Shown here piece after piece: positions 7,852 through 50,467 of a DNA stretch of 64,000 bases. Numbering within the stretch: the stretch's first letter is position 1; each line of letters opens with the position of its first letter. The notes under the pieces were generated by a model that saw only the letters and a list, made by a program, of their open reading frames with translations, was not told the DNA's origin and made no database searches. Position numbers and translations under genes: made by a program. The stretch is from Escherichia coli (GTDB lineage Bacteria > Pseudomonadota > Gammaproteobacteria > Enterobacterales > Enterobacteriaceae): assembly GCF_041248615.1 (NCBI RefSeq), contig NZ_CP158426.1. One strand, given 5' to 3'.

Positions 7852-10296
7852 TTACACCTTTTCAACCTGAACAAGGTTTGTATGTGACGGATTCCCCTTA
7901 GCGAGAGGAGACGGACGTTGAGTGGTCAGTACGTTGATACAACCGCCCTTATCGACACGTTTTGCATCCGGGTCATACCAGGCACCTTCACCCAGTGCGA
8001 CCACACCCGGCATCATTCGTGGCGTCACTTTCGCCTCAATATGAACCTCACCACGATCGTTAAAGATCCTGACTTTATCGCCGTTGTTGATACCGCGTTT
8101 TTGTGCATCAAGCGGGTTGATCCACATTTCCTGACGGCAAGCTGCTTTCAGCACATCAACGTTGCCGTAAGTTGAGTGAACGCGAGATTTGTAGTGGAAG
8201 CCAGTAAGCTGCAGCGGATATTGTTTGTTCAGCGGATCCTGATAACTTTCAAAGCCCGGCGTATAGATCGGCAGTGGATCGATCACATCGCCTTCTGGCA
8301 ATTCCCAGGTCGCGGCAATGTCAGCCAGCGCCTGCGAATAAATCTCAATTTTACCCGATGGCGTGGTCAGTGGATTTGCCTGAGGATCTTCACGGAAAGC
8401 TTTATAAGCAACGTGGTGCCCTTGTGGGTCGCGCTTTTTAAAGATCCCCTGCTTGCGGAACTCTTCAAACGTTGGCAGTTCAGGAATCGCTTCCCGCGAC
8501 TGGGCATACAGATGCCGCATCCACTCTTCCTGTGTACGGCCTTCAGTAAACTGTTGCTCAACGCCAAGACGTTTTGCCAGTTCGCTGGTCATTTCATAGA
8601 TGGTCTTACATTCAAAGCGCGGTTTAATCACCTGATCGTTGAAAATCACGTAAGACATATTCCCGCAGGATGCATCCAGTGCAAAGTCCATCTGTTCGGA
8701 AGCGGTGCAGTCAGGCAGCAGGATGTCAGCATATTTCGCTGATGAGGTCATGTGGCAGTCGATAACCACAATCAGCTCGCACTTCTTATCATCCTGAAGG
8801 ATTTCATGGGTACGGTTGATTTCAGAATGCTGGTTAATCAGGCAGTTACCGGCATAGTTCCAGATCATTTTGATCGGCACATCCAGCTTATCTTTCCCGC
8901 GCACACCATCACGCAGCGCTGTCATTTCCGGGCCACGTTCAATGGCATCGGTCCACATAAACATCGAAATGCTGGTCTGGATCGGGTTTTCGAGGGTCGG
9001 CATACGGACAAACGGTAAGCTGTATGAACCTTCACGCGCGCCGCTGTTCCCCCCGTTAATACCAACGTTACCGGTCAGAATCGCCAGCATCGAGATAGCA
9101 CGGGTTGCGATTTCACCGTTAGCGTGACGCTGCGGGCCCCATCCCTGGCTGATAAACGCCGGTTTGGTACTGCCGATTTCACGAGCCAGTTTGATGATTT
9201 TGTCTGCCGGAACACCGGTGATTTGCGAGGCCCATTCCGGCGTTTTAGCCACGCCATCTGGCCCTTCACCCAGAATATAAGCTTTATAGTGACCATTTTT
9301 CGGCGCACTGGCTGGCAGTGTTTTCTCGTCGTAGCCAACGCAATATTTATCGAGGAATGCCTGATCCACCAGGTTTTCGGTGATCATGACATACGCCAGA
9401 CCGTTAACCAGTGCGGCATCTGTTCCCGGACGAATGGGGATCCACTCATCTTCGCGCCCGGCTCCGGTGTCGGTATAGCGCGGATCGATGATGATCATGC
9501 GAGCATTAGATTTCTGACGCGCCTGTTCAAGATAGTAAGTCACCCCACCGCCACTCATTCGCGTTTCGCCAGGGTTATTACCAAACAGCACTACCAGTTT
9601 ACTGTTTTCGATATCCGACGGGCTGTTACCATCTGCCCAGCCGCCGTAGGTATAGTTCAAACCTTCCGCAATTTGCGCGGAAGAGTAGTCACCGTAATGG
9701 TTCAGATAACCGCCGCAGCAGTTCATCAGGCGAGCGACCAGGGTATTTCCCGGCGGCCAGGAGCGGGTCATGGTGCCGCCCAGCGTACCGGTGCCATAGT
9801 TCAGATAGATAGACTCGTTGCCGTACTCTTTGATCAGGCGCTGCATATTGGTCGCGATGATGTCGTAGGCTTCTTCCCAGCTAATGCGCTCGAATTTGCC
9901 TTCACCGCGCGCCCCGACTCGTTTCATCGGATATTTCAGGCGGTCCGGATTGTAGACACGGCGACGCATGGAACGCCCACGCAGACAGGCGCGCACCTGG
10001 TGCAGGCCGTCATAGTTGTCATCGCCGGTATTATCCGTTTCAACATATTTAATTTCACCGTCCACAACGTGCATACGTAGCGGGCAGCGACTACCACAGT
10101 TAACTGTACAGGCGCTCCAGATAACCTTTTCGTCTGATTTTGTTGGAATGGCGCTATCGACAGCGTGCGCAATCCGACTAAAAGGTAATGTTAATGCGCT
10201 GCTGGCCATTGCCAGGCCGCCGATCGCTGTCGTTTTTACCAAACCACGGCGACTCACCTCAGCAGCCAATACCGCATCAGGGATTTTCGTTTTCAT
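7852..10296 (-). CDS. dmsA: DMSO reductase catalytic molybdopterin subunit
   Basis: 814 aa; N-terminal Tat signal (SRRGLVKTTAIGGLAMA); molybdopterin oxidoreductase architecture. Confidence 0.95.
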   Translation of the reverse strand: MKTKIPDAVLAAEVSRRGLVKTTAIGGLAMASSALTLPFSRIAHAVDSAIPTKSDEKVIWSACTVNCGSRCPLRMHVVDGEIKYVETDNTGDDNYDGLHQVRACLRGRSMRRRVYNPDRLKYPMKRVGARGEGKFERISWEEAYDIIATNMQRLIKEYGNESIYLNYGTGTLGGTMTRSWPPGNTLVARLMNCCGGYLNHYGDYSSAQIAEGLNYTYGGWADGNSPSDIENSKLVVLFGNNPGETRMSGGGVTYYLEQARQKSNARMIIIDPRYTDTGAGREDEWIPIRPGTDAALVNGLAYVMITENLVDQAFLDKYCVGYDEKTLPASAPKNGHYKAYILGEGPDGVAKTPEWASQITGVPADKIIKLAREIGSTKPAFISQGWGPQRHANGEIATRAISMLAILTGNVGINGGNSGAREGSYSLPFVRMPTLENPIQTSISMFMWTDAIERGPEMTALRDGVRGKDKLDVPIKMIWNYAGNCLINQHSEINRTHEILQDDKKCELIVVIDCHMTSSAKYADILLPDCTASEQMDFALDASCGNMSYVIFNDQVIKPRFECKTIYEMTSELAKRLGVEQQFTEGRTQEEWMRHLYAQSREAIPELPTFEEFRKQGIFKKRDPQGHHVAYKAFREDPQANPLTTPSGKIEIYSQALADIAATWELPEGDVIDPLPIYTPGFESYQDPLNKQYPLQLTGFHYKSRVHSTYGNVDVLKAACRQEMWINPLDAQKRGINNGDKVRIFNDRGEVHIEAKVTPRMMPGVVALGEGAWYDPDAKRVDKGGCINVLTTQRPSPLAKGNPSHTNLVQVEKV

Positions 10297-10466
10297 AATG
10301 GCTCACTCAAGCTTGCTCACGATTGATTCCAGTAACAAACCGTATTGTGTAATTATTTCTATAGCAGTTCGCTATATAGGCTTGTATACATCGAATAATT
10401 TGAAAATCAAAGAGATAGGTAGATTTTCACTCGAAAGTAGTATTACGTGTAAGTGAGGAGTAATTA

Positions 10467-10480
10467 TTGTTCGGTATCAA
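10467..10480 (-). promoter_or_regulatory. FNR-type site (TTGAT-N4-ATCAA class) in dmsA promoter region
   Basis: reverse complement reads TTGATACCGAACAA, about 170 bp upstream of dmsA ATG. Confidence 0.45.
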
Positions 10481-10491
10481 AGGGAGACAAA

Positions 10492-10506
10492 AAAAGCGCC
10501 CGCAGG
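10492..10506. repeat. attL core (direct repeat AAAAGCGCCCGCAGG)
   Basis: identical 15-mer at 50468-50482; GGTACTTA at 10516-10523 mirrors TAAGTACC at 50456-50463. Confidence 0.55.
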
Positions 10507-10592
10507 AGATTTAACGGTACTTACTCCTCTTGCTGATTTCCTTATTTTTCAATAAGTAAACAAAAACAAGGGGAGCAAATTATCACAAATAA

Positions 10593-11588
10593 TTACTGGT
10601 CGATGGACAGTTTATGGACACTTTCAGCCAGCGGATTAAAGCTGATCGCATCCTGTAAAAAGTCCGGTGAAAAATGCGCATACGTCATCGTTTGCTGAAT
10701 CGTGGCGTGACCCAGGATCCTCTGCAACGTGACGATGTTCCCGCCGTTCATCATGAAATGCGTGGCGAACGTGTGCCGCATGACATGCGTGGCCTGCCCT
10801 TTGGGTAAGTCGGGCTTCACCTCCTGAAGGATCTCCCTGAAACTGAGATAATCAACCTGATATAACAGGCCGGTCCGGCGGGTTTTAATTAACGGCACAA
10901 CGGAATCAGCTACAGGAACCGAGCGCGATTTCCCGTTCTTTGTGTTAAAGAACGTCACCCTGTTACCCACGATGTGTTCCCCGCGAAGCGTTGACGCCTC
11001 TTTCCATCTGGCCCCGGTCGAAAGGCACAGAATGGCAATGCGTCGTGCATCACCCTCAAGCCGTTTCAGAAGGCGATCAATCTCGTCATCTGAAAGAAAG
11101 GCCATTTCTGTATTCTGAACCTTGAGTTTACGTATTCCGCGCACAGGGTTTTCGTTATGATAAACCTCCGCGTCAATTAACAACGAAAACATCGCAGATA
11201 AGGCGCACAGGTCGCGATTGATACTGGACGGCATCAGTCCCGCCTGCAACTTATCCGAGCGATACTCAATCACGAATTTTCGTGTCATCTGGCTGGCGCG
11301 CGGGTCCCCCATTTCACGTATCACCTTCTCCAGTCTGGTTCTGTAGGTATCACCATATGCCTGATTACGACCATCAAGCATCCACCACACCTCAATCAGT
11401 TCTGATAACCGCCGTTGATCGGCGGGCCTTGCCTGCCACGGGTTATTGTGGAAATTCTGAAGAACGTATCTTTCGAATTCCTGCGCCTTTGATTTCAGGG
11501 TGAAAATCTTACGAATCCGCCTTCCTCCCGCCCCCTGAGGCCTTACATCAACCTGATAACGTCCGTCTTTGAGTTGCTTAATCGACAT
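10593..11588 (-). CDS. int: P2-type tyrosine integrase
   Basis: 331 aa from ATG with SD GGAGGTG; N-terminus MSIKQLKDGRYQVDVRP and C-terminal HxLRHxFAT...Y catalytic region; resemblance to P2 Int is from memory. Confidence 0.9.
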   Translation of the reverse strand: MSIKQLKDGRYQVDVRPQGAGGRRIRKIFTLKSKAQEFERYVLQNFHNNPWQARPADQRRLSELIEVWWMLDGRNQAYGDTYRTRLEKVIREMGDPRASQMTRKFVIEYRSDKLQAGLMPSSINRDLCALSAMFSLLIDAEVYHNENPVRGIRKLKVQNTEMAFLSDDEIDRLLKRLEGDARRIAILCLSTGARWKEASTLRGEHIVGNRVTFFNTKNGKSRSVPVADSVVPLIKTRRTGLLYQVDYLSFREILQEVKPDLPKGQATHVMRHTFATHFMMNGGNIVTLQRILGHATIQQTMTYAHFSPDFLQDAISFNPLAESVHKLSIDQ

Positions 11589-11657
11589 GATCAGCACCTC
11601 CGACGGATAAACCTGTTAACCCCTGCTTACTGAACGCCGCCCGTTCAATATACAGCG

Positions 11658-11999
11658 TCAGCCAGCATTGCGGCCTGATTGGGGTGATTTTTGGGTATTG
11701 CGGGTTGAAACCTGATCGTCCTCCGACTGCGTGGAGCCATCAAGAGAGAGAGCCGGGGCGATCTGACCGGCAACAGGTAGCGTCTTATCTTTGATTAGCC
11801 AGAACATATATTTTTCAAACCGATCCACTTGAAGGACGGCCTCAACAATCTTTGCTCTGGCGATCTTTTGCCCTGACTCATAATTCCTGACAGTTGCCAG
11901 AGATAACCCTGTAATATCAGCAAATTGCTTTTGAGTTAGCCCTTCCGTCTTGCGTATCAAACGCAACTTTTTCGCATAGTCTATTGACAAGATACTCAT
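11658..11999 (-). CDS. P2 C-type immunity repressor (HTH)
   Basis: 113 aa; HTH near N-terminus; C-terminal GQIAPAL motif recalled from P2 C; divergent from cox-like gene. Confidence 0.8.
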   Translation of the reverse strand: MSILSIDYAKKLRLIRKTEGLTQKQFADITGLSLATVRNYESGQKIARAKIVEAVLQVDRFEKYMFWLIKDKTLPVAGQIAPALSLDGSTQSEDDQVSTRNTQKSPQSGRNAG

Positions 12000-12048
12000 T
12001 TGGGGATTAATCTCCTACAAAAGATAACCGTACGATTATCTTTACAAG

Positions 12049-12068
12049 TCATCAAAAATCATCAAAAG
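12049..12068. promoter_or_regulatory. candidate repressor operator, two adjacent 10-bp direct repeats TCATCAAAA(A/G)
   Basis: direct repeats in the C/cox-like divergent promoter region. Confidence 0.4.
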
Positions 12069-12102
12069 GCGCAACAAGCGCACCAATGCAAGAGGATAAC
12101 AA

Positions 12103-12624
12103 ATGCGGGAGATTATTGCCGACAAAGAGTTATCTGGCGCTCAACCGGTTCAGGATGATGGCGCGGACAATGAATTCATTGAAGCTGCCAACGACAACGA
12201 ACACCTGGAAACCAAAACCAGACCGTCCTACAAAAAGGGCGCAACCCTACGACTGGACGGCCCAGTCGCAGGACTTGTGTCACTGGAAAAAGGGGCTGCC
12301 TATCTGGGGGTAACAAAATCTGCGCTACGCGCCGCCATTCAGCGCGGGCAGATGCCGGGTCACAAAACGCGCTCAAATCCCGAAGATGAAAAGTCAGACG
12401 GTACATGGTGGTTTAACGCCAAAGCCTGGGACGAACTAGCCGACGAACTACTGGAGTGCGAACCGCCAGAGTGGCACAACTGGAAAAGCTACTGGACGTA
12501 CGACCGCAAGAAAAGAAAGTTTTCACCGGCAAACAAGGAGGACTGCCAGACCGTTAAAGGTAAGCAGGTTTACTCCCCCAGAGTTTCAAAACTGGAGCAA
12601 CTCAAAAACAACCAGCCCGGCTAA
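12103..12624 (+). CDS. Cox/excisionase-like DNA-binding protein (early operon first gene)
   Basis: 173-aa ORF with SD GAGGAT; divergent from repressor. Confidence 0.55.
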   Translation: MREIIADKELSGAQPVQDDGADNEFIEAANDNEHLETKTRPSYKKGATLRLDGPVAGLVSLEKGAAYLGVTKSALRAAIQRGQMPGHKTRSNPEDEKSDGTWWFNAKAWDELADELLECEPPEWHNWKSYWTYDRKKRKFSPANKEDCQTVKGKQVYSPRVSKLEQLKNNQPG

Positions 12625-12632
12625 ACACGAAA

Positions 12633-12839
12633 ATGACCAGCAATATCATCAATGCCGTTTTGAACATTATATTCCTGGAATTAGGCGTAGTAGTGATTTA
12701 TCTGCTTGGCAAGCTAACAGGACAAAAAGAACGTTTTATTGTCCTCAACGTTCATTACGTCGCAGCTTATTCTAAAGGGCTTTTTCCAATAGTTGTTGGC
12801 GCGGGACTTACAGCGTTTGTCATCTGGCTCATCAGGTAG
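12633..12839 (+). CDS. small 2-TM membrane protein (hypothetical)
   Basis: 68 aa, two hydrophobic helices; AT-rich with rare codons; weak RBS. Confidence 0.35.
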   Translation: MTSNIINAVLNIIFLELGVVVIYLLGKLTGQKERFIVLNVHYVAAYSKGLFPIVVGAGLTAFVIWLIR

Positions 12840-13121
12840 AGGCACACAACGTAATCATTCGTAGCTATATTTCCGCAATAGTATTCAAGTAAAGGAAGAC
12901 AACAACATGAAACCAAGACAAAGATTAACCTCCAGAAGTAGTGACGCATTGCACTTTAAAGCAAAAGACATAATAGCCACAACAAAGGTAGGAGCATAAG
13001 TCTATATACACTTTCAGAATTTCTATCTGGAGAGAACATTAAAAACGGAAGAGGAAGCCAATGAGTATTTGTTATTCATGAAAGATTGCATAGAAGGAAA
13101 AATAAGCGCAGGAGATAAATA

Positions 13122-13430
13122 ATGCGAAAACATTATTCACAGCCACATTTCCGCAACAGTGCACCACGCAGCAATAACCGCTGGAGCCTGCGCGAAACAC
13201 ACGCAACGCCGGGCGGTCATGCTGTAAAACAGACTGGTCAACACACCTGGCTGATTGAGCAGGCCGGACTCGTGATCCACAGATGCCACCGCAATCCGTT
13301 TACCGGAAACCGCATTTTTGCACTGAGCAGCGGCGACAATCAGTTCGGACAGGATTTCACACTGCACGAAGCCTTGCGAACTGCCGACCGCTTAATCGAG
13401 GGGCGCAGCTTTCAGCATACCGACTACTAA
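13122..13430 (+). CDS. hypothetical early protein
   Basis: 102-aa ORF with SD AGGAG upstream. Confidence 0.45.
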   Translation: MRKHYSQPHFRNSAPRSNNRWSLRETHATPGGHAVKQTGQHTWLIEQAGLVIHRCHRNPFTGNRIFALSSGDNQFGQDFTLHEALRTADRLIEGRSFQHTDY

Positions 13431-13468
13431 GGCAAAAGGAGTCTTAATAAGACAGAAGAGGCAGCAAG

Positions 13469-13711
13469 ATGAAAAGAGCCTATAAAGAACTCATTAACGA
13501 CGCGCTTCAGAATTACCATTACGGACTTACAAGCCGTGGCACTAACGGTGACGCTGTTTCACTTGCAGCACTGACTACAGCAATCAAGGGCCTGACCTGT
13601 TGCGCCTTTGGTTCCGGAGATAATGAAGCTCTGACGGAATTACAGGCCATTAATAAAGACCTGTCTGAAGGAAACGTAATAACCCCCTTTGTAATTCAGG
13701 AGGAAGCATGA
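13469..13711 (+). CDS. hypothetical early protein
   Basis: 80-aa ORF with SD; translationally coupled (ATGA) to next small ORF. Confidence 0.5.
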   Translation: MKRAYKELINDALQNYHYGLTSRGTNGDAVSLAALTTAIKGLTCCAFGSGDNEALTELQAINKDLSEGNVITPFVIQEEA

Positions 13712-13833
13712 GCGTATTTATGTCATGGTTAATTCTTATCCTTGCCATTATTTGCGCTGTGGGGATTATGCGGGTAATTAACAGCATTAACACCATTGAA
13801 TCGTTATTTACTGGCGATAAGCGCCGTAAATAA
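13708..13833 (+). CDS. 41-aa hydrophobic peptide (single TM)
   Basis: strong SD AGGAGG 6 nt upstream of ATG; MSVFMSWLILILAIICAVGIMRVINSINTIESLFTGDKRRK; below track length cutoff. Confidence 0.45.
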   Translation: MSVFMSWLILILAIICAVGIMRVINSINTIESLFTGDKRRK

Positions 13834-13913
13834 ACAGGCGTTTAACACCAGAAACAACCAGAAACATCCGCTCACGCGGAGGGGTTGACCCGCTCAAAAA
13901 GGAGAAATCAGGA

Positions 13914-14207
13914 ATGCTTAATAATAAAAAAAACCGAATCATTGATAACAGTGAACAGGTCAACAAAATAATCGAAGGCACAAACAAATTAATTAAGAAA
14001 AAAAACAAACTAAGCCGTGAATTAATGGAACATCCGGAAGAAATATTATTAGCCATGATGCACCAGACAGAAGCGATAGCCATCGCCCTTGCCGTGCAGG
14101 CGCTTTCTGAGTTCCGGGAAGAAAACATCAGGCTGGCTCAGGAGCTGAAAAACCTCAGACGTCAGCTTCAGAGCACTGAGGCTGGCACGTCATCACGAAT
14201 ACACTGA
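13914..14207 (+). CDS. hypothetical coiled-coil protein (AT-rich)
   Basis: 97 aa; SD AAGGAG; markedly AT-rich 5' half. Confidence 0.5.
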   Translation: MLNNKKNRIIDNSEQVNKIIEGTNKLIKKKNKLSRELMEHPEEILLAMMHQTEAIAIALAVQALSEFREENIRLAQELKNLRRQLQSTEAGTSSRIH

Positions 14208-14217
14208 GGGCCACACC

Positions 14218-14427
14218 ATGACTGCAATTCTGAGAAGACGCAATAAAACGCTTTTTACCGATACATCCGGGATGGAATACGAAGTGGAAAGCAGTGTCAT
14301 CGCCACCACCACCCGATGCCCGGCAGGTGACGAACTGATTTACGTCCACCTGACGGACGGGTCACAGATAACCGTCCTGACAGAGTCATGGCGCGAACTC
14401 GAGATAATAAGCGAGGTAAGAACATGA
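14218..14427 (+). CDS. hypothetical early protein
   Basis: 69-aa ORF with SD GAGGG. Confidence 0.45.
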   Translation: MTAILRRRNKTLFTDTSGMEYEVESSVIATTTRCPAGDELIYVHLTDGSQITVLTESWRELEIISEVRT

Positions 14428-14636
14428 GCAGCAAACACGATACCAACGCACGCAGACCAGGCAAAGAGGCGCGTCACCATATCGCCGTAATGCGCAACCT
14501 GCTTATGAGTGAAATCGACGATTTTGTGGCAGGCCTGGGGCAACCGGGCGAACCAGCAACACCAGGCCAGATACACAGGGAATTACGCCGCCGCGTGGAA
14601 AACGTCGTGGATTACGTCATAAACCCGAACGACTGA
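14424..14636 (+). CDS. hypothetical early protein
   Basis: 70 aa from ATG overlapping previous stop (ATGA); SD GAGGT. Confidence 0.45.
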   Translation: MSSKHDTNARRPGKEARHHIAVMRNLLMSEIDDFVAGLGQPGEPATPGQIHRELRRRVENVVDYVINPND

Positions 14637-14675
14637 CGGGAACATGGCGAGCGTCAGATGACACACGCAGGGCAC

Positions 14676-15158
14676 TTATCGGGAAAAACCGATCGTAATG
14701 GCAGCCATCATCTTTTCAGCGAAAGAGAGAGATTCACGATGACTGATATTCAGAGACATACAGGCTTTGTTGTACGCCACATTTTCCATGCATTCCAGGA
14801 CAGGAGAGTCATGCATCTCAAGCTCTGGAAGGCGTGCCAGCAGAGCTTCCGTACTGAGGAGGGCGCTTTTGGTAATCAACTCATTGTAGCGATGGGCATG
14901 CTCACTCGCCGCCTGCGCACGTTGCCCGAAACGACATATGAAATTACAGGCTCCGAGAACCACCACCACTGCCCCAAGCACCCAGCCGAAATGCCAGCCG
15001 GCTACGATGAACGCACCCGCCGCAAGGATCAAAATGTTGATGATCGCATCAAGGCGACGATTGAATACCGCCGCGATGCGCTCCAGCCAGTAGCTGTACC
15101 AGAGACGGAACATGACCTCATCCCGTTCTCTCGATTTTTTACGTTGGTTGTTTTGCAT
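14676..15158 (-). CDS. 2-TM membrane protein, opposite strand to early operon (candidate exclusion/abortive-infection protein)
   Basis: 160 aa; SD GAGGGA; two TM helices then soluble domain; host-like codon usage, unlike the overlapping plus-strand ORF. Confidence 0.6.
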   Translation of the reverse strand: MQNNQRKKSRERDEVMFRLWYSYWLERIAAVFNRRLDAIINILILAAGAFIVAGWHFGWVLGAVVVVLGACNFICRFGQRAQAASEHAHRYNELITKSALLSTEALLARLPELEMHDSPVLECMENVAYNKACMSLNISHRESLSFAEKMMAAITIGFSR

Positions 15159-15392
15159 GGTGTTTTATCCCTCATCGTCATCGCTCTGCCCCTAATCAGC
15201 GCAGAGTGCAGGGTAACCTGGCTCGTGGAATTTTTGCAGCCAGACATCTTTACCCCCGGGCGTGTTGAACAAAGTGTCCGCCAGATCCACTGAACGGCGG
15301 ATTCATCAATGCTAACACGCCCTTCTTTTCCGGTTGAAGGCGAAAAAACCGGACCATTACCCCGACACAAAACAGAACAACGGAGAACAACT

Positions 15393-15947
15393 ATGCCCGC
15401 ACTTAAACCTATGGGTGTATCAGGTGTACCACCGAAGCATGTCAGAGCCTGGACACAACAGGAAGATGCTCTACTGGTCGGTTTATACCCCTCCCACACC
15501 GTACCAGAACTGACAAAACACTTTCAGAGAACCGGGCCAGCAATACGAAGCCGCATCCGTCTTTTGCTCTCTCAGGGGGTTATCCACACCAAACAACCCC
15601 CCCTGAATACAAAAGAACTCAACACGCTCATCAGGAATCGCCACACAAAAACCATCCGGGAACTCGCGAATGAACTGGGGCGCTCGACATCCACGGTGGG
15701 ACTGAACCTGAGAAAAAGAGGGTACCGGTTCAGGAAATACGGGGAACTCCACCACAGAGCCAGATACAGCGATCACCTGGTGGAGTTGGTAACTGAACTG
15801 CGCGATGAACAGGGGATGACATTCAGCGAAATCAGAAAGTACATCCGGGACATGGCCGGGATATCCCTTAAAAGATGGGTCCTCGCCCGGCTTTACGCAC
15901 GATATACCGCCGCTGACACCGTGCTTTGCGAACTGCTACCGGACTGA
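15393..15947 (+). CDS. HTH/Myb-like DNA-binding protein
   Basis: 184 aa from ATG with SD GGAG; W-x2-EDALLVGLY Myb/SANT-like segment; divergent from the membrane-protein gene. Confidence 0.55.
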   Translation: MPALKPMGVSGVPPKHVRAWTQQEDALLVGLYPSHTVPELTKHFQRTGPAIRSRIRLLLSQGVIHTKQPPLNTKELNTLIRNRHTKTIRELANELGRSTSTVGLNLRKRGYRFRKYGELHHRARYSDHLVELVTELRDEQGMTFSEIRKYIRDMAGISLKRWVLARLYARYTAADTVLCELLPD

Positions 15948-16174
15948 GTAACCACTATGCACACACAAAAAAACCGCTTGCCATGCCGCAATCAGTCAGG
16001 TTACATTTCCGCTGCACCTCATAAAACGGGTGCCGGGATTGCAACCCCCGCTGACAACTACAGCGCACAACCGCGCCAGCGGTTTTTTTGTGCGTACCGT
16101 ATCGCCACGTCTTTTTCGCGCCAGAATTATGGCGGGGCGTATGGGGCCGACTTCGGTCGGGCCGGTTTCTGTAG

Positions 16175-16242
16175 TTGCCGGTGGTTGCAACCCTGTACGT
16201 CTCGCCACCCAGAATTGCAACCTCTGGATGGTGAGTTTTCAA
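16175..16242. promoter_or_regulatory. three phased TTGCAAC(C) boxes; a fourth copy at 16029-16036
   Basis: TTGCAA palindromic cores at 16175, 16205, 16236 (30-31 bp apart), upstream of ORF 16268. Confidence 0.35.
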
Positions 16243-16267
16243 AACTTGCAACTACAGAGGCCACACC

Positions 16268-16492
16268 ATGGCAAACCGCAAACAACAGCGCGCATACGCT
16301 GCGCGTCGTCACATCCAGACTGAAATCAACCGCAGACTTTTCCGCGCATTCCGCGTCGCGCATATCATGCACATCAATATGCTGCATGAGCGCAGCCACG
16401 CACTGTCAAACATGTATTCCGCCGCTGTATTCAGCTACCTGGCGGATGACCTGCGCGAGCTGCAGGACCTCATTAACCAGCACCACCACTAA
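16268..16492 (+). CDS. small basic protein (hypothetical)
   Basis: 74 aa; SD AGAGG; basic N-terminus. Confidence 0.45.
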   Translation: MANRKQQRAYAARRHIQTEINRRLFRAFRVAHIMHINMLHERSHALSNMYSAAVFSYLADDLRELQDLINQHHH

Positions 16493-16560
16493 TCAACATC
16501 CCGGAGCCATCCCGCCCCCGTACGCGGGAGGCTTCCGCACGTCCGTTTCCGGAGGTTCTC

Positions 16561-16974
16561 ATGAAGAGCGTTAAGGGACTTTCAGATATTCAGGATTTTT
16601 TTAACTGGATGTGGGCGGTGGATCCACGCCTCGCTTCCCGTCTCAATGACCTGCACGACTATTACCGCCGCGCCTGTAAACAGGCAGCCCGCAGCGCTGC
16701 CACATACGGGGATTTTTCCTTCACCGTTGACGACCGTTACCGCGTGGATGTCAGAGACCAGAACCACAGCCTGGAGCTGGGCCTGTTCCACATCAACGGG
16801 TGCGACAGCAGCGTTATCAGCTGGTCATCGTCAGAAATGGTGCTCGTTCTGGAAATGACCACCCACAGCGTGGTCGTGAAAGGGATTAAAACAGCAGAAG
16901 ACTTTATCGCTGAATACCAGCGCCTTCTTGTGCTGTACCGGGCTGCATTTCAGAAGGCAACAGCAGGGGAGTAA
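16561..16974 (+). CDS. hypothetical protein upstream of gpA
   Basis: 137 aa; SD GGAGG; 5 bp before gpA. Confidence 0.6.
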   Translation: MKSVKGLSDIQDFFNWMWAVDPRLASRLNDLHDYYRRACKQAARSAATYGDFSFTVDDRYRVDVRDQNHSLELGLFHINGCDSSVISWSSSEMVLVLEMTTHSVVVKGIKTAEDFIAEYQRLLVLYRAAFQKATAGE

Positions 16975-16979
16975 GCGGA

Positions 16980-19490
16980 ATGAGCCATCACCACACGCAC
17001 CTGGCGTACCCGTGGAACGCCCCGCTGCCGGTTATTGATCCTGAGACATTCGGCAGAGCATTACCGCAGAAGCCAACCGCATTACAACGGGCAATCCGTG
17101 ACTACCTCACCGAAGACATTCGCACTGAGGCCCGGCTGGATGAAGAAACCGTGGCCTTCCTGACAACCACGGACAAAGGTAAGCAAATTAATTCACACCT
17201 TCACCGGGACGAAGAGCGGCAGATAAGGCTGGATAAGCTGGCACGACACAGACGCGAAAATCCGCCAACGGCGGTATCGGAGGCGATAGCCGAACTTCGC
17301 ACCCTGCCCTCGTTTCTTGCCAGTGTGTTGATCCGTGATCTGGCACGACTGAACCGGAAACAGCAAAGTGCCCGCAGTGAAGGTGTAAAAAACAACAGCG
17401 CATACGTGGCCGATAATTTCGTTCGCCGTGGACTGCGTGCGCGCCTGAAACGTATTGAAAGGGTTAACGACCGCTTTGCAACGCCGGCATTCAAAACCAC
17501 CGTCGTGCGCCATCGCCTTGAAGAACTGCTCACACTGCCGCAACTCACCCGTGACGAAATCCAGCGCATCGCCACACTGACAGCCCAGGCATTCGCCGCA
17601 GAATTTGAACGCATATGTGATGAAGTTCTTGAACGGACAGGCAAGGATAATGACAGCCCGGTTATCTGGCTGCTGGCCTACCAGAAGGTGGCACGCACAG
17701 CCTTAATTCTGGGCATGGTCCCGCCATACTGGCCGGAACTCGAAATCAGGCACAACCGACGCACACCGCCGGACCCTGAACGGGTTCCGGGTGCGGTACT
17801 GCGCATCACCTGCGCGACCTGGTGGAACAACCAGTTACGCCACGTCGCCGATCTCTGGCGGGAGGAGTTACTGCGCGCCGCCGGCAGAGTGTCACGTAAA
17901 CAATCCCCCTATATCAGCCATGAGTCACTACTGGAGTTCCGCGAGAAGCGCCAGCGCACCTGTGACTTTCTCAAAAGCTGGGATATTGAAAACGAAGACG
18001 GCGAGCGCCTGAGTCTGGAGGACGTGTACTGGGCTGGCCTGGGTAATCCACGCAACCGCCGCAATGAAATGATGGTCTGCGTCAGAGGGATGGAGATGGT
18101 GGCCGAATTACGGGCTGACGTCGCATTCTTCATCACAGTAACCACCCCTTCCCGCTTTCACAGCGTGAACGAGAACGGCAGCCTGAACCCGAAATACAAC
18201 GGTGCCACAGTACGAGATGCCAGTGATTATCTGGTTTACGACTTCTTCGCAGCCGTAAGAAAAAAAATAAAAAAAGAGGGGCTGGGCTGGTACGGCGTGC
18301 GAACCGCTGAGCCACACCATGACGGCACGCCACACTGGCATATGCTGGTATTCACTTCCCCGGAGAACGCAGAGCGCATCATCGAAATTATGCGCGAAGC
18401 AGCAATTAAATCAGATCGCCACGAACTGGGGGACGATATTTCACCGCGCTTTAAATGCGAGAAGATAGACCCGGAAAAAGGCACACCGGCAAGCTATATC
18501 GCAACCTATATCGGTAAGAACCTGGACGCCAGCGCTTTCCACAACAATGATCCGAAAACCGGAAAACCTTACGTTGATGAGGAATCCGGGAAAACCATGG
18601 CGGAAACCGTGGAGAACGCCATTGCCTGGGCAAGCCTTCACCGCATCCGTCAGTTCCAGTTTTTCGGCATTCCGCCCCGCCAGGTATGGCGTGAACTCCG
18701 CCGCCTTGCAAGCCAGATGGAGCGCAACCCGGCATCACCGAAGCACCTCGATCATGACGATATTGACGCCATTATGGCTGCCGCAGATGTGGGATGTTTT
18801 GCCACCTACATCATGAAACAGGGTGGTGTGCTCATTCCGCGCAACCAGTATCTGGTCCGCACCGCATACGAAACCGCAGACGAAGCCAACGACTACGGTG
18901 AATTCCCTCAACGTATCTACGGAATCTGCGCCCCGTCGCTCGGAGAGCGGTACACCATATGCACCCATCCGGACGAGTGGAAACTGGTTAAAAAAGAAAC
19001 AACACCAGACAACCGCACGGGCGAGGGTTTTGACCTTCATGGCGACCCCGTCGCCCCTTGGACTCGTGGCAATAACTGTCCCCGGGATGAAAAAACAGAC
19101 AATCACGGACCAGAAAACAGGCAGGACCCCGGACGACTGACGCTTCCCGAAGAGAACCTGGAAAGCTGGCTGAATACGTTAAGCAGGGGCGATCGGAGAA
19201 AACTGCGTAATCAGATTAAAAATCAGCCGTCGGGCGCAAAAACCGGACAAAACGACACCACACCGGCATCTGACACCCCTGTAAGGGTGGGGATTGTCGT
19301 GCCTGCGGATACCGCGACGGACACGCAAATCGCCCGCGAACTTGATGCGCTGGGTGTGCAGTTGCCTGACGCGGCCATCATCTCCGTGCGTAACGGTGCC
19401 CGTGTGCGTCTGGATAACGGGGGAACAGCGTACTGGGATGAGTCAGCCCGTCACATCATCACAGAGCAGCCAGTGGAGGCGGGAGCATGA
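16980..19490 (+). CDS. rolling-circle replication initiator (P2 gpA-like)
   Basis: 836 aa; HUH-type motif HHDGTPHWHMLVF; size and position match P2 gene A. Confidence 0.9.
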   Translation: MSHHHTHLAYPWNAPLPVIDPETFGRALPQKPTALQRAIRDYLTEDIRTEARLDEETVAFLTTTDKGKQINSHLHRDEERQIRLDKLARHRRENPPTAVSEAIAELRTLPSFLASVLIRDLARLNRKQQSARSEGVKNNSAYVADNFVRRGLRARLKRIERVNDRFATPAFKTTVVRHRLEELLTLPQLTRDEIQRIATLTAQAFAAEFERICDEVLERTGKDNDSPVIWLLAYQKVARTALILGMVPPYWPELEIRHNRRTPPDPERVPGAVLRITCATWWNNQLRHVADLWREELLRAAGRVSRKQSPYISHESLLEFREKRQRTCDFLKSWDIENEDGERLSLEDVYWAGLGNPRNRRNEMMVCVRGMEMVAELRADVAFFITVTTPSRFHSVNENGSLNPKYNGATVRDASDYLVYDFFAAVRKKIKKEGLGWYGVRTAEPHHDGTPHWHMLVFTSPENAERIIEIMREAAIKSDRHELGDDISPRFKCEKIDPEKGTPASYIATYIGKNLDASAFHNNDPKTGKPYVDEESGKTMAETVENAIAWASLHRIRQFQFFGIPPRQVWRELRRLASQMERNPASPKHLDHDDIDAIMAAADVGCFATYIMKQGGVLIPRNQYLVRTAYETADEANDYGEFPQRIYGICAPSLGERYTICTHPDEWKLVKKETTPDNRTGEGFDLHGDPVAPWTRGNNCPRDEKTDNHGPENRQDPGRLTLPEENLESWLNTLSRGDRRKLRNQIKNQPSGAKTGQNDTTPASDTPVRVGIVVPADTATDTQIARELDALGVQLPDAAIISVRNGARVRLDNGGTAYWDESARHIITEQPVEAGA

Positions 19491-19918
19491 CGCGATTTTG
19501 CTGCACCATGCAGCGCCCACAGTTTGAGGCCATCATGCGCCAGCGTATGCCGGTGCTGACACTGTTCAGGCCTGCCACAAGGCCACAACCGGGCGACGAG
19601 CTGGAAATCACGATAGTCAGCCCCGATCGCACCACGGAGACCACCATCGCCGACATACTCAACAGGCGGCCGGGCAGCGAGAGCCATAGCTGGACTGTCG
19701 TCATTCGTCCGCGCCGTTCGCCGGAGGAACCGGAGCCGTGCACGCCTGCCGGGAAAATCATGCAGAGATATCACGAAGAGCGGACACGCAGGCACAACGG
19801 CGGACTGGCCAGAACACTGAACACAGTCAATCACAAGGCCGCGCTGGCGCGAATGGTCTTTTCACCACAACGCAATTCATTCGCCAGACCAGCACAGAAC
19901 GGGAGGAAACAACAGTGA
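19487..19918 (+). CDS. hypothetical protein (P2 orf91 position)
   Basis: 143 aa; ATG overlaps gpA stop (ATGA); SD GGAGG. Confidence 0.5.
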   Translation: MTRFCCTMQRPQFEAIMRQRMPVLTLFRPATRPQPGDELEITIVSPDRTTETTIADILNRRPGSESHSWTVVIRPRRSPEEPEPCTPAGKIMQRYHEERTRRHNGGLARTLNTVNHKAALARMVFSPQRNSFARPAQNGRKQQ

Positions 19919-20109
19919 GCAGAATATTACTTTTTCTGCTGTTTTTCGCGCCATTCGCACAATCAGCCACGCCGAACTGCGTAGCGAAAAAGAGCAACAC
20001 CGTTGTCATTGTCCAGTGTGATGACGGCACGGTAACAATCACCGACTCGAGCAAAGGAAGCGTCATTGTCTGCCGTAAAGAGAAACCCTGTCAGCGAACC
20101 GAACTTTGA
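19915..20109 (+). CDS. small secreted Cys-containing protein (signal peptide)
   Basis: GTG start overlapping upstream stop (GTGA), SD GGAGG; 64 aa, MSRILLFLLFFAPFAQS signal then 4 Cys. Confidence 0.5.
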   Translation: MSRILLFLLFFAPFAQSATPNCVAKKSNTVVIVQCDDGTVTITDSSKGSVIVCRKEKPCQRTEL

Positions 20110-20120
20110 AGGAAAAATAT

Positions 20121-21829: not shown

Positions 21830-23371
21830 ATGCCAACAGTTCCAATTTCTATGAGAAAACTTAAAGAAATTCTTAGGCTTAAATACGGTGTTGGACTCAG
21901 CCATCGACAAATTGGTCGTAGTCTTGCAATCTCCCCTTCCGTTGTATCCAGATATGCTAATCGGGCGGCTCAACTTGGCATAAAGCAGTGGCCCTTACCT
22001 ACAGGATGGGATGATACAAAACTAAAACATGCGTTCCTTCAGACCCAGGTTAAGATGAAGAAGCACTCTCTGCCTGACTGGGCTACAGTACACCGGGAAC
22101 TGCGTAATAAATGCGTGACGCTGCAGCTACTCTGGGAAGAATACTGTGAGCGTAATCCAGGCGGTTTTTACAGCTATAACCATTACTGCCGGATGTACCG
22201 TGAATGGCTCAAAACCACTTCACCATCAATGCGTCAGGTACATAAAGCTGGCGAAAAACTTTTCGTTGATTACTGTGGACCTACCGTTGGCGTTACCGAC
22301 CCTGAGACCGGAGAAATAAGAACTGCTCAGGTCATCGTAGCTGTTCTCGGGGCATCAAGTTACACATGGGCAGAGGCCACCTGGTCTCAGCAGCTTGAAG
22401 ACTGGGTGATGAGTCATGTTCGCTGCTTCCAGTGGTTGGGTGGCGTTCCTGAACTTGTTGTTCCGGACAATCTGAAAAGCGCCACATCCAGGGCATGTAA
22501 GTATGATCCTGACGTTAACCCTACCTACCAGCAGATGCTTGAGCATTATAATGTCGCAGTTTTGCCTGCGCGGCCACGTAAACCGAAAGATAAAGCCAAA
22601 GCTGAAGTTGGCGTTCAGGTTGTTGAACGCTGGATCATGGCCCGAATCAGGCATGAGATCTTCTACAGCCTTGCATCGCTTAATCAGCGCATTCGGGAGT
22701 TGCTGGAAAGACTGAATAACAAAATAATGCAGAAGTTGGGTTATTCACGTGCAGAACTCTTCATCCAGCTTGATAAACCCGCACTGAAGCCTCTTCCTGA
22801 AGCCAGTTACAGTTACACCCTGGTGAAGAAAGTCAGAGTTCATGCCGATTACCACGTGGAAATCGACAAACATTACTACTCGGTTCCATGTTCGCTGTTA
22901 GGCCAGCAACTGGAAGCATGGATCTCCGGAGAACTGGTAAGACTCTTCAATCAGGGGCAGGAGGTTGCTGTGCACCCGCGCAAGCGTACTTATGGCTACA
23001 GTACCCGCAACGAGCACATGCCTGAAGCTCATCGACAGCATGCCACCTGGACGCCAGAGCGTCTTCTGGAATGGGCGGGGCACATAGGCAGTGAAACTCA
23101 TAGTTATGTGCTTCATATACTGAACTCTCGTCCACATCCGGAACAAAGCTATCGCTTCTGCCTTGGACTCCTGAACCTTCATAAAAAATACAGTAAAGCC
23201 AGACTTAATGCAGCATGTGCAAGAGCTCTGAAAACAAAGGTATGGCGTCTGTCAGGTATTAAATCGATCCTGGAAAAAGGTCTGGATAAACAACCTGTTC
23301 AGGATCCAAAACCAGATCTGTTATCCACGATGGAACACGAAAACGTACGCGGCAGTGAGTATTACCACTGA
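21830..23371 (+). CDS. istA: IS21-family transposase IstA
   Basis: 513 aa; N-terminal HTH; DDE-type integrase core; followed by istB. Confidence 0.9.
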   Translation: MPTVPISMRKLKEILRLKYGVGLSHRQIGRSLAISPSVVSRYANRAAQLGIKQWPLPTGWDDTKLKHAFLQTQVKMKKHSLPDWATVHRELRNKCVTLQLLWEEYCERNPGGFYSYNHYCRMYREWLKTTSPSMRQVHKAGEKLFVDYCGPTVGVTDPETGEIRTAQVIVAVLGASSYTWAEATWSQQLEDWVMSHVRCFQWLGGVPELVVPDNLKSATSRACKYDPDVNPTYQQMLEHYNVAVLPARPRKPKDKAKAEVGVQVVERWIMARIRHEIFYSLASLNQRIRELLERLNNKIMQKLGYSRAELFIQLDKPALKPLPEASYSYTLVKKVRVHADYHVEIDKHYYSVPCSLLGQQLEAWISGELVRLFNQGQEVAVHPRKRTYGYSTRNEHMPEAHRQHATWTPERLLEWAGHIGSETHSYVLHILNSRPHPEQSYRFCLGLLNLHKKYSKARLNAACARALKTKVWRLSGIKSILEKGLDKQPVQDPKPDLLSTMEHENVRGSEYYH

Positions 23372-23382
23372 TACGGGATCCA

Positions 23383-24132
23383 ATGATGAATCATCTTTAC
23401 GAACAACTGACCGCACTTAAACTCACCGGCTTCCGTGATGCGCTTAAAAAGCAACTTGCTCAGCCGGGCACATACCAGGAGCTGGGCTTCGAAGAACGCC
23501 TGTCATTACTGACAGCAGAAGAACTAACCTGCCGTGAAAACAGGAAGGCAGAGCGTCTGATCAAACATGCACGGTTCAGACTTAATGCTGAGTTATCAAA
23601 GCTGGATTATCGTAACAATAGAGGGCTGGACAGGGCCCTCATCCGTTCACTCAGTCAGGGAAACTGGTTAACCCTGAAACAAAATATTTTACTGACCGGG
23701 GCCACCGGCAGCGGTAAAACGTTCCTGGCATGTGCACTTGGTCATAATGCCTGCCGACAGGGATACAAGGTCTACTATTATCGCCTTAAAGCGCTGATGG
23801 AACAGTGCTATCAGGGGCATGCTGATGGAAGATACAGCAAACTTTTGACCAGGCTGAATAATAGCGATCTGCTGCTTCTGGATGACTGGGGGCTGGAACC
23901 TCTCTCATCAGAACAGCGTAGCGACCTGCTGGAAATAGTGGATCTGATGTACCAACGAGGCTCAATCATCGTAGTGAGCCAGTTGCCGGTGGAAAACTGG
24001 TACAAAATGATCGGAGACTCCACACATGCGGATGCCATCCTAGATCGACTGGTTCATGGCAGTATCAAGATCGAACTTAAAGGAGAATCAATGCGGAAAA
24101 TACAATCTCCGTTGACCGAAGGAGATCAGTGA
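23383..24132 (+). CDS. istB: IS21-family ATP-binding helper IstB
   Basis: 249 aa; Walker A GATGSGKT. Confidence 0.9.
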   Translation: MMNHLYEQLTALKLTGFRDALKKQLAQPGTYQELGFEERLSLLTAEELTCRENRKAERLIKHARFRLNAELSKLDYRNNRGLDRALIRSLSQGNWLTLKQNILLTGATGSGKTFLACALGHNACRQGYKVYYYRLKALMEQCYQGHADGRYSKLLTRLNNSDLLLLDDWGLEPLSSEQRSDLLEIVDLMYQRGSIIVVSQLPVENWYKMIGDSTHADAILDRLVHGSIKIELKGESMRKIQSPLTEGDQ

Positions 24133-46759: not shown

Positions 46760-46897
46760 TAATCAGGTTGAGAGGACATCATAAGGCAAGTAGATTAACG
46801 GCAGATACTTTCCCGCAACCACGGGCAAGTATTTAATTATCCATGATGAAATATGACCTAAATTGTTTTTTGCCCGCCGGAAAGCGGGCATTTTTTT
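46760..46897 (+). repeat. repeat unit 1 (partial) ending in bidirectional intrinsic terminator
   Basis: shares GTTGAG...AGTAGATTA...CCATGAT...TTTTGCCCGCCGGAAAGCGGGCATTTTTTT with four downstream units. Confidence 0.55.
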
Positions 46898-47111
46898 ATT
46901 CTTTTGTGGTTATGGGGTCATCAGGAACCACGTGCAGATTATATTTTTGTTTTTTTGGCGTTCCTCCGGCAGCAACGAGTTCATCAATAAGACACTGACA
47001 CGCCTGAACATCCCGGGCATGTCTTAGTTTCACCTTTATTGATTTAACCTTATCCTCACCGGAGGAGAAATGCAGTTCAATCTCAATATCGTTTCTTCGG
47101 AACAATCTCAT
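46896..47111 (-). CDS. small protein of unknown function
   Basis: 71 aa (MRLFRRNDIEIELHF...); two decayed copies downstream; palindrome upstream. Confidence 0.5.
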   Translation of the reverse strand: MRLFRRNDIEIELHFSSGEDKVKSIKVKLRHARDVQACQCLIDELVAAGGTPKKQKYNLHVVPDDPITTKE

Positions 47112-48732: not shown

Positions 48733-48734
48733 AT

Positions 48735-50450: not shown

Positions 50451-50467
50451 ATAGTTAAGTACCATGC

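Follow-up and report, generated by a model that had tools for sequence, protein, structure and literature searches.

Organisation of the early operon

The window analysed here is a 64,000-nucleotide stretch of Escherichia coli DNA carrying a P88-type (P2-like) prophage at positions 10560–46760, integrated between dmsA and serS. The P2 gene order of integrase, C repressor, Cox, replication endonuclease, portal and terminase is found in the prophage, and phage DNA matches to it come from Xuanwuvirus only. On the basis of gene order and DNA matches we identify the element as a Xuanwuvirus (P88-like Peduoviridae) prophage and the AT-rich stretch at 12630–14210 as the start of its early operon. The arrangement int–C / cox–DUF4761–DUF4754–tiny peptide–orf67–...–A is common to the prophage, P88 and relatives, and the backbone order DUF4761, (gp05), DUF4754, tiny peptide, orf67 recurs in essentially all of 80 related viral contigs. 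Used as a marker, the DUF4761 gene is present in 968 of 5426 complete E. coli genomes (~18%). The annotation of the prophage also includes a hok/Gef gene, located outside the AT-rich region.

All features described below are on the plus strand. The first early-operon gene (12103–12624) encodes a 173-aa Cox-family protein (Pfam Phage_Cox, E=1.5e-8; phrog_23196 transcriptional regulator, E=1.6e-92), named 'Cox family DNA-binding protein' in RefSeq. On its right the AT-rich stretch is bounded by the next early-operon genes, orf69 (14218–14427) and orf70 (14424–14636; phrog_4144, E=8.6e-13), both of normal GC content (50–55%), whose recognisable counterparts are P88 gp08 and the C-terminal half of the ead/Ea22-like protein.

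Composition and codon usage

The first-pass annotation described the stretch as more AT-rich than the surrounding prophage and host DNA, and sliding-window analysis bears this out. GC content is 44.1% at 12630–14210, against 54.6% for the prophage, 55.1% for the rest of the early operon (14211–20110) and 50.2% and 52.5% for the host flanks; among 1581-bp windows, just 0.54% of those within the prophage and 2.5% of those across the whole 64 kb are as GC-poor. Synonymous sites are AT-rich too, with GC3 values of 0.33–0.48 compared with a prophage mean of 0.626 (sd 0.065; z from -2.3 to -4.6). The stretch is not uniform, however: two AT-rich blocks, 12625–13121 (38.0% GC) and 13708–14210 (42.9%), are separated by the DUF4761 gene at a normal 54.7% and the DUF4754 gene at an intermediate 45.7%.

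Three ORFs had been picked out after the Cox-family gene, at 12633–12839 (68 aa), 12907–12999 (30 aa) and 13914–14207 (97 aa), and all are present at these positions; the DUF4761 and DUF4754 genes and the 41-aa ORF at 13708–13833 had been passed over. The rare codons attributed to these small ORFs are a feature of the broken 71-codon ORF described below, the sole outlier at 17%, whilst orf68 (9.0%) and orf97 (10.4%) are no worse than their neighbours (7.6–8.4% in cox, C and int; prophage range 2–15%).

Core genes

Core genes were scored in 81 sequences, comprising the 80 related viral contigs and the window, and DUF4761, DUF4754 and orf41 are each found in 79–81 of these. The DUF4761 gene (13122–13430, 102 aa; Pfam PF15958, 158.9 bits, cut-off 27) is variable over its first ~12 codons, with a conserved core from about 13157 and a dN/dS of 0.09. 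The DUF4754 gene (13469–13711, 80 aa) matches Pfam PF15946 (E=2.2e-10, 41.1 bits, cut-off 27) and phrog_2549 (E=1.3e-26), has a GC3 of 0.405 and is present in 80 of the 81 sequences with a mean GC of 0.464. Translationally coupled to it through an ATGA overlap is orf41 (13708–13833; GC 38.1%), which encodes a 41-aa single-helix membrane peptide (best hydropathy window 2.78) homologous to the P88 gp07 'membrane protein' and its counterparts. Its dN/dS is 0.115 against CS5L, and it occurs in 79 of the 81 sequences with a mean GC of 0.357. As core genes, none of the three has the position of a moron, between genes that are adjacent in relatives. The literature searched contains no mention of DUF4761 or DUF4754, and the phiSM/P88 paper is silent on this early-operon region.

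Slot 1: orf68 and a broken 71-codon gene

Slot 1, the first of two variable sites, separates cox from the DUF4761 core. In P88, cox is followed directly by DUF4761, and 64 of 77 related contigs have none of the known cassettes here; orf68 is found in 11 of the 77 (but not in P88 or CS5L) and orf71 in three, with 35-aa ORFs in others. Compared with DG341, the segment 12838–13156 is swapped for unrelated sequence between flanks that are 95–99% identical.

In the window, slot 1 begins with orf68 (12633–12839; GC 41.5%), an accessory cassette encoding a 68-aa protein with two hydrophobic helices (GRAVY 1.2; best 19-aa hydropathy window 2.36). The protein matches phrog_14475, a family without known function, over residues 1–67 of 68 (E=3.7e-25) and has syntenic homologues with 58–75% amino acid identity in Shae_phiSM, Chuche, P884B11 and PhiR44_2. 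With a dN/dS of 0.29–0.41 against five homologues, orf68 is clearly constrained by purifying selection. The 67-nt AT-rich spacer that follows (12840–12906) is missing about 85 nt relative to CS5L, to which it has weak residual similarity, and may be the remnant of the 35/36-aa hydrophobic ORF held there in CS5L, P884B11 and DG341; folding of the spacer gave no RNA structure (z=+0.49).

Next comes psi-orf71 (12907–13122; GC 34.7%), a 71-codon gene with an in-frame TAA at codon 31 (12997–12999), whose final stop overlaps the DUF4761 start (TAATG). The 30-codon ORF at 12907–12999, recorded in the first-pass annotation as having its own Shine–Dalgarno sequence, does have AAGGA about 10 nt upstream of its ATG but is the truncated front end of this pseudogene and not a small gene. 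Intact 71-aa alleles are found in E. coli CS5L (L008, 2011–2226), in the ENA metagenome contigs L011 and L012 and in the IMG/VR contig L016, the last with 43% amino acid identity, equal length and the same TAATG junction; the in-frame TAA is shared with GF60 (L001) and the IMG/VR contig L014. AlphaFold, run without an alignment on an intact allele, predicts three strands and a helix (pLDDT 76). The pN/pS values of 0.7–2.2 among orf71 alleles indicate that even intact versions are only weakly constrained. Substitutions fall 15/14/8 over codon positions 1/2/3, and the N-terminal halves of two intact alleles differ by about 14.5 nonsynonymous against 0.5 synonymous changes. Antisense coding of the segment was considered and rejected, six-frame pN/pS giving no clearly constrained frame and the antisense ORFs being broken by stops. 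Nor does any signal support programmed read-through of the TAA or a restart there, which were also considered.

Slot 2: orf97

The second variable site, slot 2, is bounded by a conserved hairpin and by orf69. Of the 78 sequences scored, 51 have nothing there, 23 have an unrelated gene of 136 aa and four have orf97. Sequence up to the slot-2 ribosome-binding site is common to the prophage and its relatives. The orf41–orf97 intergenic region contains a tandem direct repeat, two copies of ACCAGAAACA (13847–13866), of which strain SCU-115 has one copy fewer in alignment, followed by the palindrome TCCGC-N4-GCGGA (13867–13880). An alignment of six lineages covers this hairpin; its stem is invariant and its loop variable in all Xuanwuvirus relatives examined, with no plus-strand U-run after it, and the motif occurs once in the window against 0.10 expected. 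The fold of the whole intergenic region is unexceptional (z=-0.61).

The 97-codon ORFan cassette orf97 (13914–14207; GC 42.2%) has AAGGAG upstream, and its boundaries coincide exactly with those of the cassette; its ribosome-binding region is the one used by orf67 in relatives. Its N-terminal part is Lys/Asn-rich, with an A8 tract at 13998–14005; to the eye, the C-terminal part is helical-looking. A search of 5.8 billion clustered proteins and an exhaustive reading of 1.84 billion representatives returned only copies of at least 94% identity, tblastn against 50,697 phage records gave no match, and no family or structure match was found in Pfam, PHROGs, PADLOC, NCBIfam or PDB sequences. Kinship to the alternative slot-2 gene of Shae_phiSM, or to the P88 ead/Ea22-like protein, was rejected for want of any similarity. 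The cassette occurs in 26 of 5426 complete E. coli genomes; it is absent from CS5L and split by IS5 in strain F11. In LH10-b-1 (P0003) the A-tract is six nucleotides longer, and in the IMG/VR contig L018 it is one shorter, producing a frameshift. All five substitutions among the copies are nonsynonymous, with no sign of purifying selection, and orf97 may not encode a functional protein.

Searches with Pfam, PHROGs, PADLOC and NCBIfam on all frames of the region returned only DUF families and families of unknown function, and none of the six frames could be given a function. No PADLOC match to the ORFs of 12630–14210 was better than E=0.037, and none of these ORFs matched a toxin family, Hok/Gef and SLATT included, in NCBIfam or Pfam.

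Transcription signals

Consensus scanning of the region identified five promoter-like sites against 4.5 expected, although weak promoters and those not of the sigma-70 type may escape such a scan; from 12600 to 14300 it gave no terminator on the plus strand. Genes are spaced at -4 to 80 nt, and the cassettes adjoin their neighbours through 8-nt and 10-nt gaps and TAATG/ATGA overlaps. By these scans none of the cassettes is flanked by a promoter and a terminator of its own and, given the tight spacing as well, the transcriptional autonomy that defines a moron is not seen. AT-rich DNA often carries cryptic promoters, and the cassettes may be transcribed in the lysogen. An Rfam search of 10000–16000 (E<=1) gave no match in the region, the only hit, STnc130, lying outside it; RNA folding of the two intergenic pieces likewise found nothing.

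Comparison with known phages

P88, Shae_phiSM, P884B11, PhiR44_2 and Chuche share with the window the same-strand order after cox, including the conserved hairpin and then orf67/69, and four of these Xuanwuvirus also share orf68. The window differs from them in its broken orf71, its ORFan orf97 and an unrelated, longer Cox allele (173 aa), and it lacks the 92–95-aa gene that 69 of 80 relatives have between DUF4761 and DUF4754. DNA identity to P88-like phages is confined to islands of about 215 bp (68–83%), and phage-wide DNA and tblastn searches for the region's ORFs gave matches only in Xuanwuvirus. For phage 186, the evidence is this lack of matches outside Xuanwuvirus across the whole collection.

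The resemblance to the P2 early operon (cox, orf78, B, orf80–83, A) is one of layout: a Cox-led series of small rightward ORFs ending in the replication endonuclease, with GC content varying in P2 from 37% to 52%. Comparison with P2 itself found no sequence homologues there of orf68, orf71, DUF4761, DUF4754, orf41 or orf97.

In the definition reportedly given for lambdoid phages by Juhala/Hendrix et al. (2000), morons are additional genes that sit between conserved ones, carry a promoter and a terminator of their own and deviate in composition. Like these, and like P2 tin and old, the cassettes are present or absent between adjacent genes and fall below the surrounding phage genome in GC content. 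Unlike lambdoid morons, they have no flanking promoter or terminator in the scan, lie on the operon strand and are tightly coupled to their neighbours. P2 tin and old differ from them too, being transcribed leftward from their own mapped transcript starts and having only 33–35% GC.

Origin of the AT-rich stretch

The first-pass annotation took the stretch to be consistent with horizontally acquired moron DNA. This is partly supported: orf68, psi-orf71 and orf97 are patchily distributed and lie between genes adjacent in most related phages, which in comparative terms is the mark of acquired accessory DNA. The stretch is not a single acquired block, however, since core genes lie within it, and the autonomy implied by the word moron was not found. 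The cassettes do deviate in composition (35–42% GC against 54.6%), but composition does not discriminate morons here because DUF4754 and orf41, although core genes, are just as AT-rich; as both are AT-rich across all the relatives that carry them, low GC at these genes is a family trait and not evidence of recent import.

We consider the stretch to be, most probably, a product of ordinary phage mosaicism, a small core with swappable genes, one of them broken, and not a self-contained import. The conserved backbone consists of cox, DUF4761, DUF4754, the tiny membrane peptide, orf67/69 and later genes, interrupted by two recombination slots at which relatives exchange small accessory genes. In this prophage, slot 1 contains orf68 and then a 71-codon gene inactivated by a nonsense mutation, and slot 2 the lineage-restricted ORFan orf97. 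The low GC content has three sources: two backbone genes, DUF4754 and the peptide gene, that are AT-rich in every relative; cassettes that are AT-rich in the way usual for phage accessory genes and ORFans; and the pseudogene with its spacer, the most AT-rich piece (35%). As the cassettes lack transcription signals of their own and reuse operon ribosome-binding sites, they are most likely transcribed from the early promoter only, following induction or infection. Any function would then probably be an early lytic one, at the host membrane or in host takeover or anti-defence, for example, and not lysogenic conversion.

Could the stretch instead be decaying, largely non-functional DNA, with orf97, and possibly orf71 everywhere, being chance frames in A-rich sequence? 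The nonsense codon in orf71, the possible deletion of the 36-aa ORF upstream, the 15/14/8 spread of orf71 substitutions over codon positions and the exclusively nonsynonymous differences, IS5 insertion and homopolymer length changes of orf97 all point this way, and stop-free runs of such length arise in 7–17% of shuffles when six frames are allowed. Against this, orf68 is clearly constrained (dN/dS 0.3–0.4), orf71 keeps exactly 71 codons and its TAATG junction at 43% identity and has a confident predicted fold without an alignment, and orf97 has a strong AAGGAG site and boundaries identical to those of its cassette. We regard wholesale decay as unlikely.

Somewhat less likely still is that one or more cassettes are classical morons, independently transcribed imports expressed from the repressed prophage that confer a new trait on the lysogen, such as superinfection exclusion. 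Position between genes adjacent in most relatives and deviant composition at all codon positions would fit, as would the nature of two of the products, both small membrane proteins like some known exclusion proteins. The 41-aa peptide, however, is encoded by a core gene and is not an import; the consensus scan shows neither more promoters than expected nor any plus-strand terminator at or near the cassettes; the 8-nt and 10-nt gaps, the TAATG/ATGA overlaps and the position of orf97 on an orf67-type ribosome-binding region tie the cassettes to the operon; and the genuine P2 conversion genes look quite different, tin and old being encoded on the opposite strand from mapped transcript starts of their own and having a GC content of 33–35%. 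That orf41, orf68 and the relatives' 35/36-aa ORFs are type I toxin–antitoxin-like or holin-like loci under antisense RNA control is very improbable, for although three different short hydrophobic ORFs occupy this part of the operon across relatives and hok/Gef is annotated elsewhere in the prophage, the region has no Rfam match, no Pfam, PADLOC or NCBIfam toxin match and no antisense promoter–terminator pair in the scan, and orf41 is translationally coupled to DUF4754 in a long operon, unlike stand-alone type I loci.

Implications

The two slots, one on either side of the DUF4761–DUF4754–peptide core, might form a small accessory hotspot in the Xuanwuvirus early operon whose fast-evolving, lineage-restricted occupants act as early counter-defence or host-takeover factors in an arms race. 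We put this forward as a speculative and rather doubtful reading; candidates would be orf71, orf97 and the 136-aa and 35-aa alternatives, with the nonsense allele in the window representing a recent loss.

The significance of these results is mostly one of annotation. What might have been taken for a small gene is corrected to a pseudogene, and the gap left in RefSeq between orf68 and DUF4761 corresponds to a broken 71-codon gene. In addition, two early-operon cassette slots are documented for a prophage family whose DUF4761 marker about 18% of complete E. coli genomes carry. Should the cassettes prove to act in anti-defence or host takeover, which is hypothetical, these slots would offer a convenient place to mine for more.

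Prophage setting

The AT-rich segment (12630-14210) lies at the start of the early operon of a P88-type prophage, a ~40-kb insert in the E. coli chromosome between two minus-strand genes, dmsA (7852-10296) and serS (50511-51803). At the left end the prophage encodes a tyrosine integrase (10593-11597, minus) and a C-type repressor (11658-11999, minus), with a Cox-family gene (12103-12624, plus) divergent from the latter; rightward of cox, genes for the replication endonuclease, portal, terminase, tail, gpD and ogr follow in the order seen in P2. A 15-bp repeat, AAAAGCGCCCGCAGG, occurs at 10492 and again at 50468 and probably forms the attachment core. A match to the STnc130 sRNA family (10387-10521, plus, 125.8 bits) spans the left copy (10492-10506); the prophage thus seems to insert at the 3' end of an sRNA gene and to restore that gene; the right copy occupies 50468-50482.

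Among phage records, DNA similarity to 11600-15000 is confined to Xuanwuvirus (P88-like Peduoviridae), and there to ~225 bp of the DUF4761 gene. Of 5426 complete E. coli genomes, 26 contain identical or near-identical copies of this 3.4-kb query and 968 carry the DUF4761 island. An IS21-family element (21830-24132, plus), encoding IstA (513 aa; rve and Mu-transposase C domains) and IstB (249 aa), separates the replication genes from the portal gene; strain GF60 is without it and carries another IS21-family copy (ISSso4) nearby, in the opposite orientation.

Composition and gene content

The GC content of the segment is 44.1%, compared with 54.6% for the prophage (10560-46760), 55.1% for the rest of the early operon (14211-20110), 57.1% for the late genes and 50.2% and 52.5% for the host flanks. 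Only 0.54% of 1581-bp prophage windows are as low, confirming the AT-richness described in the first-pass annotation, and the stretch after ogr is the sole part of the 64-kb window to fall below it. The segment is not uniform, however: orf68, the following spacer and psi-orf71 (12625-13121) have 38.0% GC, DUF4754 45.7% and orf41 through orf97 (13708-14210) 42.9%, but DUF4761, in the middle, reaches 54.7%. The deficit is present at codon positions 1, 2 and 3 (GC3 is 0.33-0.48, where 33 other prophage genes average 0.626, sd 0.065) and so does not merely reflect hydrophobic or Lys/Asn-rich amino acid content. The rare codons initially ascribed to the small ORFs set them apart little: their fraction is 9.0% in orf68 and 10.4% in orf97, near the 7.6-8.4% of cox, C and int and within the 2-15% spanned by the prophage. 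For host genes in the window the figure is 0.5-5%.

Six plus-strand frames occupy the segment, with spacings of 8, 67, -1, 38, -4, 80 and 10 nt, and all three small ORFs singled out in the first-pass annotation are present where it placed them. The product of orf68 (12633-12839) has two hydrophobic helices and matches phrog_14475. It is followed by psi-orf71 (12907-13122), a 71-codon frame with an in-frame TAA at codon 31 whose stop overlaps the DUF4761 start (TAATG), the DUF4761 gene itself (13122-13430; Pfam E=4.7e-47), the DUF4754 gene (13469-13711; E=2.2e-10), orf41 (13708-13833), encoding a 41-aa single-helix peptide and overlapping the DUF4754 stop as ATGA, and orf97 (13914-14207). Both orf68 and orf41 are real genes: dN/dS is 0.29-0.41 for orf68 (against five homologues with 58-75% amino acid identity) and, in comparison with E. 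coli CS5L, 0.115 for orf41 and 0.09 for DUF4761. The first ~20 residues of DUF4761 proteins (13122-13190) are Arg/Asn/Ser-rich, lineage-variable and predicted to be disordered (pLDDT <50); the Shae_phiSM annotation gives the protein 36 additional N-terminal residues, which are homologous to a separate 35-aa ORF of P884B11.

The 80-nt intergenic region before orf97 contains two tandem copies of a 10-bp repeat, ACCAGAAACA, and directly thereafter a palindrome, TCCGC-N4-GCGGA (13847-13880 for the whole). Strain SCU-115 is missing one repeat copy. Across six aligned Xuanwuvirus lineages the palindrome stem is unchanging and the loop varies; with no U-run, it is not an obvious terminator. An Rfam search gave no match in the segment, and the two intergenic pieces fold no better than shuffled sequences.

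A conserved backbone with two variable slots

In P88, cox is followed directly by DUF4761, a 92-aa gene, DUF4754, a coupled 37-aa membrane peptide and orf67. When 80 related IMG/VR contigs were annotated with reference proteins, the order DUF4761, (92-95-aa gene), DUF4754, tiny peptide, orf67 was found in essentially all. Counting the window as the 81st sequence, DUF4754 was detected in 80 of 81 (mean GC 0.464) and the tiny membrane peptide (orf41 family) in 79 (mean GC 0.357), both AT-rich everywhere. In these two genes AT-richness characterises the family as a whole and does not point to recent acquisition by this prophage. In different relatives this same backbone is preceded by at least five Cox/excisionase alleles with little or no relationship to one another, of 67, 92, 95, 141 and 172-173 aa (position 12103-12624; loci L002, L006, L008, L021 and L025).

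Small accessory genes come and go at two places. Slot 1, between cox and the DUF4761 core, holds no known cassette in 64 of 77 contigs, orf68 in 11, orf71 in three and one or two 35-aa ORFs in a few. Slot 2, located after the conserved hairpin and ahead of orf67/69, has no occupant in 51 of the 78 sequences scored; 23 carry an unrelated 136-aa gene there and four, the window among them, carry orf97. Strain DG341 is 95-99% identical to the window in the flanks, but 12838-13156 is replaced by unrelated sequence with P884B11-type 35-aa ORFs, indicating that the slot boundaries are recombination junctions. The sequence through the orf97 ribosome-binding site is homologous to the site serving orf67 in relatives.

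The 30-codon ORF, first described as having its own Shine-Dalgarno sequence, proves to be the stump of a pseudogene. CS5L has an intact 71-aa ORF at this position with the same TAATG end, the ENA metagenome contigs L011 and L012 have the order cox-orf68-orf71-DUF4761, and IMG/VR contig L016 carries a third allele, 43% identical, again with exactly 71 codons and the TAATG junction. L011 differs from the window by one base (12692) over 12402-12993, has TCA in place of TAA at codon 31 and matches the CS5L type from 12994 onwards. The TAA is shared by GF60 and IMG/VR contig L014, and over 12600-13200 the window has matches of 99% identity or more in 15 complete genomes; RefSeq leaves the interval unannotated in window-type genomes. 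The orf71 family is weakly constrained, with pN/pS of 0.7-0.9 between distant alleles and 2.2 between the window and CS5L. Over the first 30 codons the latter pair shows 14.5 nonsynonymous against 0.5 synonymous differences, too few for a firm claim of positive selection; since an intact allele (P0007) begins with the same 30 residues as the window's ORF, this contrast is in effect intact versus intact.

For orf97, a word-indexed search of 5.8 billion clusters returned only copies or fragments of at least 94% identity, all from E. coli, as did an exhaustive HMMER pass over 1.84 billion representatives, and tblastn over 50,697 phage records found no match. By DNA search it is present in 26 of 5426 complete genomes at no less than 96.6% identity. 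Judged by these searches, orf97 qualifies as a strict ORFan. It is a candidate gene, favoured as genuine by its strong AAGGAG site and by the exact agreement of its ends with the cassette boundaries. All five point differences among its copies are nonsynonymous; in strain F11 it is split by IS5 at CTAA (14010), and its A8 tract (13998-14005) has six extra bases in LH10-b-1, which add two lysines, but lacks one in IMG/VR contig L018, a frameshift possibly due to sequencing error.

Other features of the element

Rfam matches to isrK (16014-16089, plus, 60.1 bits) and C4 antisense RNA (16125-16212, plus, 80.1 bits), both above gathering score, lie just upstream of a gene for a 74-aa 'Derepression' family protein (16268-16492; Pfam E=3.2e-6). 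The cluster resembles an antisense immunity module of the c4 type, in the style of P1/P7, lying in a P2-like early operon. The ~3.7 kb from ogr to the right attachment core (46800-50470) has the lowest GC of the window (42.5%) and is almost non-coding. It is made of repeated 70-230-nt units of 66-99% identity, each with a terminator-like GCCCGCC...GGGCATTTTTTTT, and may represent several hok/sok-type loci or their remnants; RefSeq annotates one Hok/Gef toxin gene in this stretch in GF60.

Moron DNA or early-operon mosaicism?

The proposal that the segment is acquired moron DNA holds in part for the three cassettes, whose slots are empty in most relatives, but not for the core genes DUF4761, DUF4754 and the peptide. 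Nor do the signals point to transcriptional autonomy: consensus scans of the segment found five promoter-like sites against 4.5 expected and no plus-strand terminator. The suggested comparison with P2 yielded no homologues of any frame in its early operon (cox, orf78, B, orf80-83, A), where small ORFs range from 37% to 52% GC, and phage-wide DNA and protein searches, the evidence that bears on 186, gave no matches outside Xuanwuvirus. The P2 conversion genes tin and old, which run leftward from their own mapped transcript starts at 33-35% GC, show the pattern of true morons, and the segment differs from it. The 160-aa phrog_6315 gene in mid-operon (14676-15158, minus), given its opposite orientation, is a stronger candidate than the segment for a moron with expression of its own; it weakly matches a SLATT domain (NCBIfam E=0.006) as well as membrane proteins.

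Ordinary mosaicism in a phage early operon is the best-supported reading. Reasoning from P2 biology and the lack of internal signals, the cassettes would be silent under bound C repressor and transcribed from the early promoter with cox and the replication genes upon induction. The nonsense codon in psi-orf71 leaves ~120 untranslated nt before DUF4761, which retains its own AGGAG site, so that lost translational coupling may reduce rather than abolish DUF4761 expression. The products comprise two small membrane proteins, one probably helical protein and one small beta-plus-helix domain, which could plausibly act early by perturbing the membrane, in host takeover or in counter-defence. Taken as a whole, the segment adds one more example of a familiar phenomenon.
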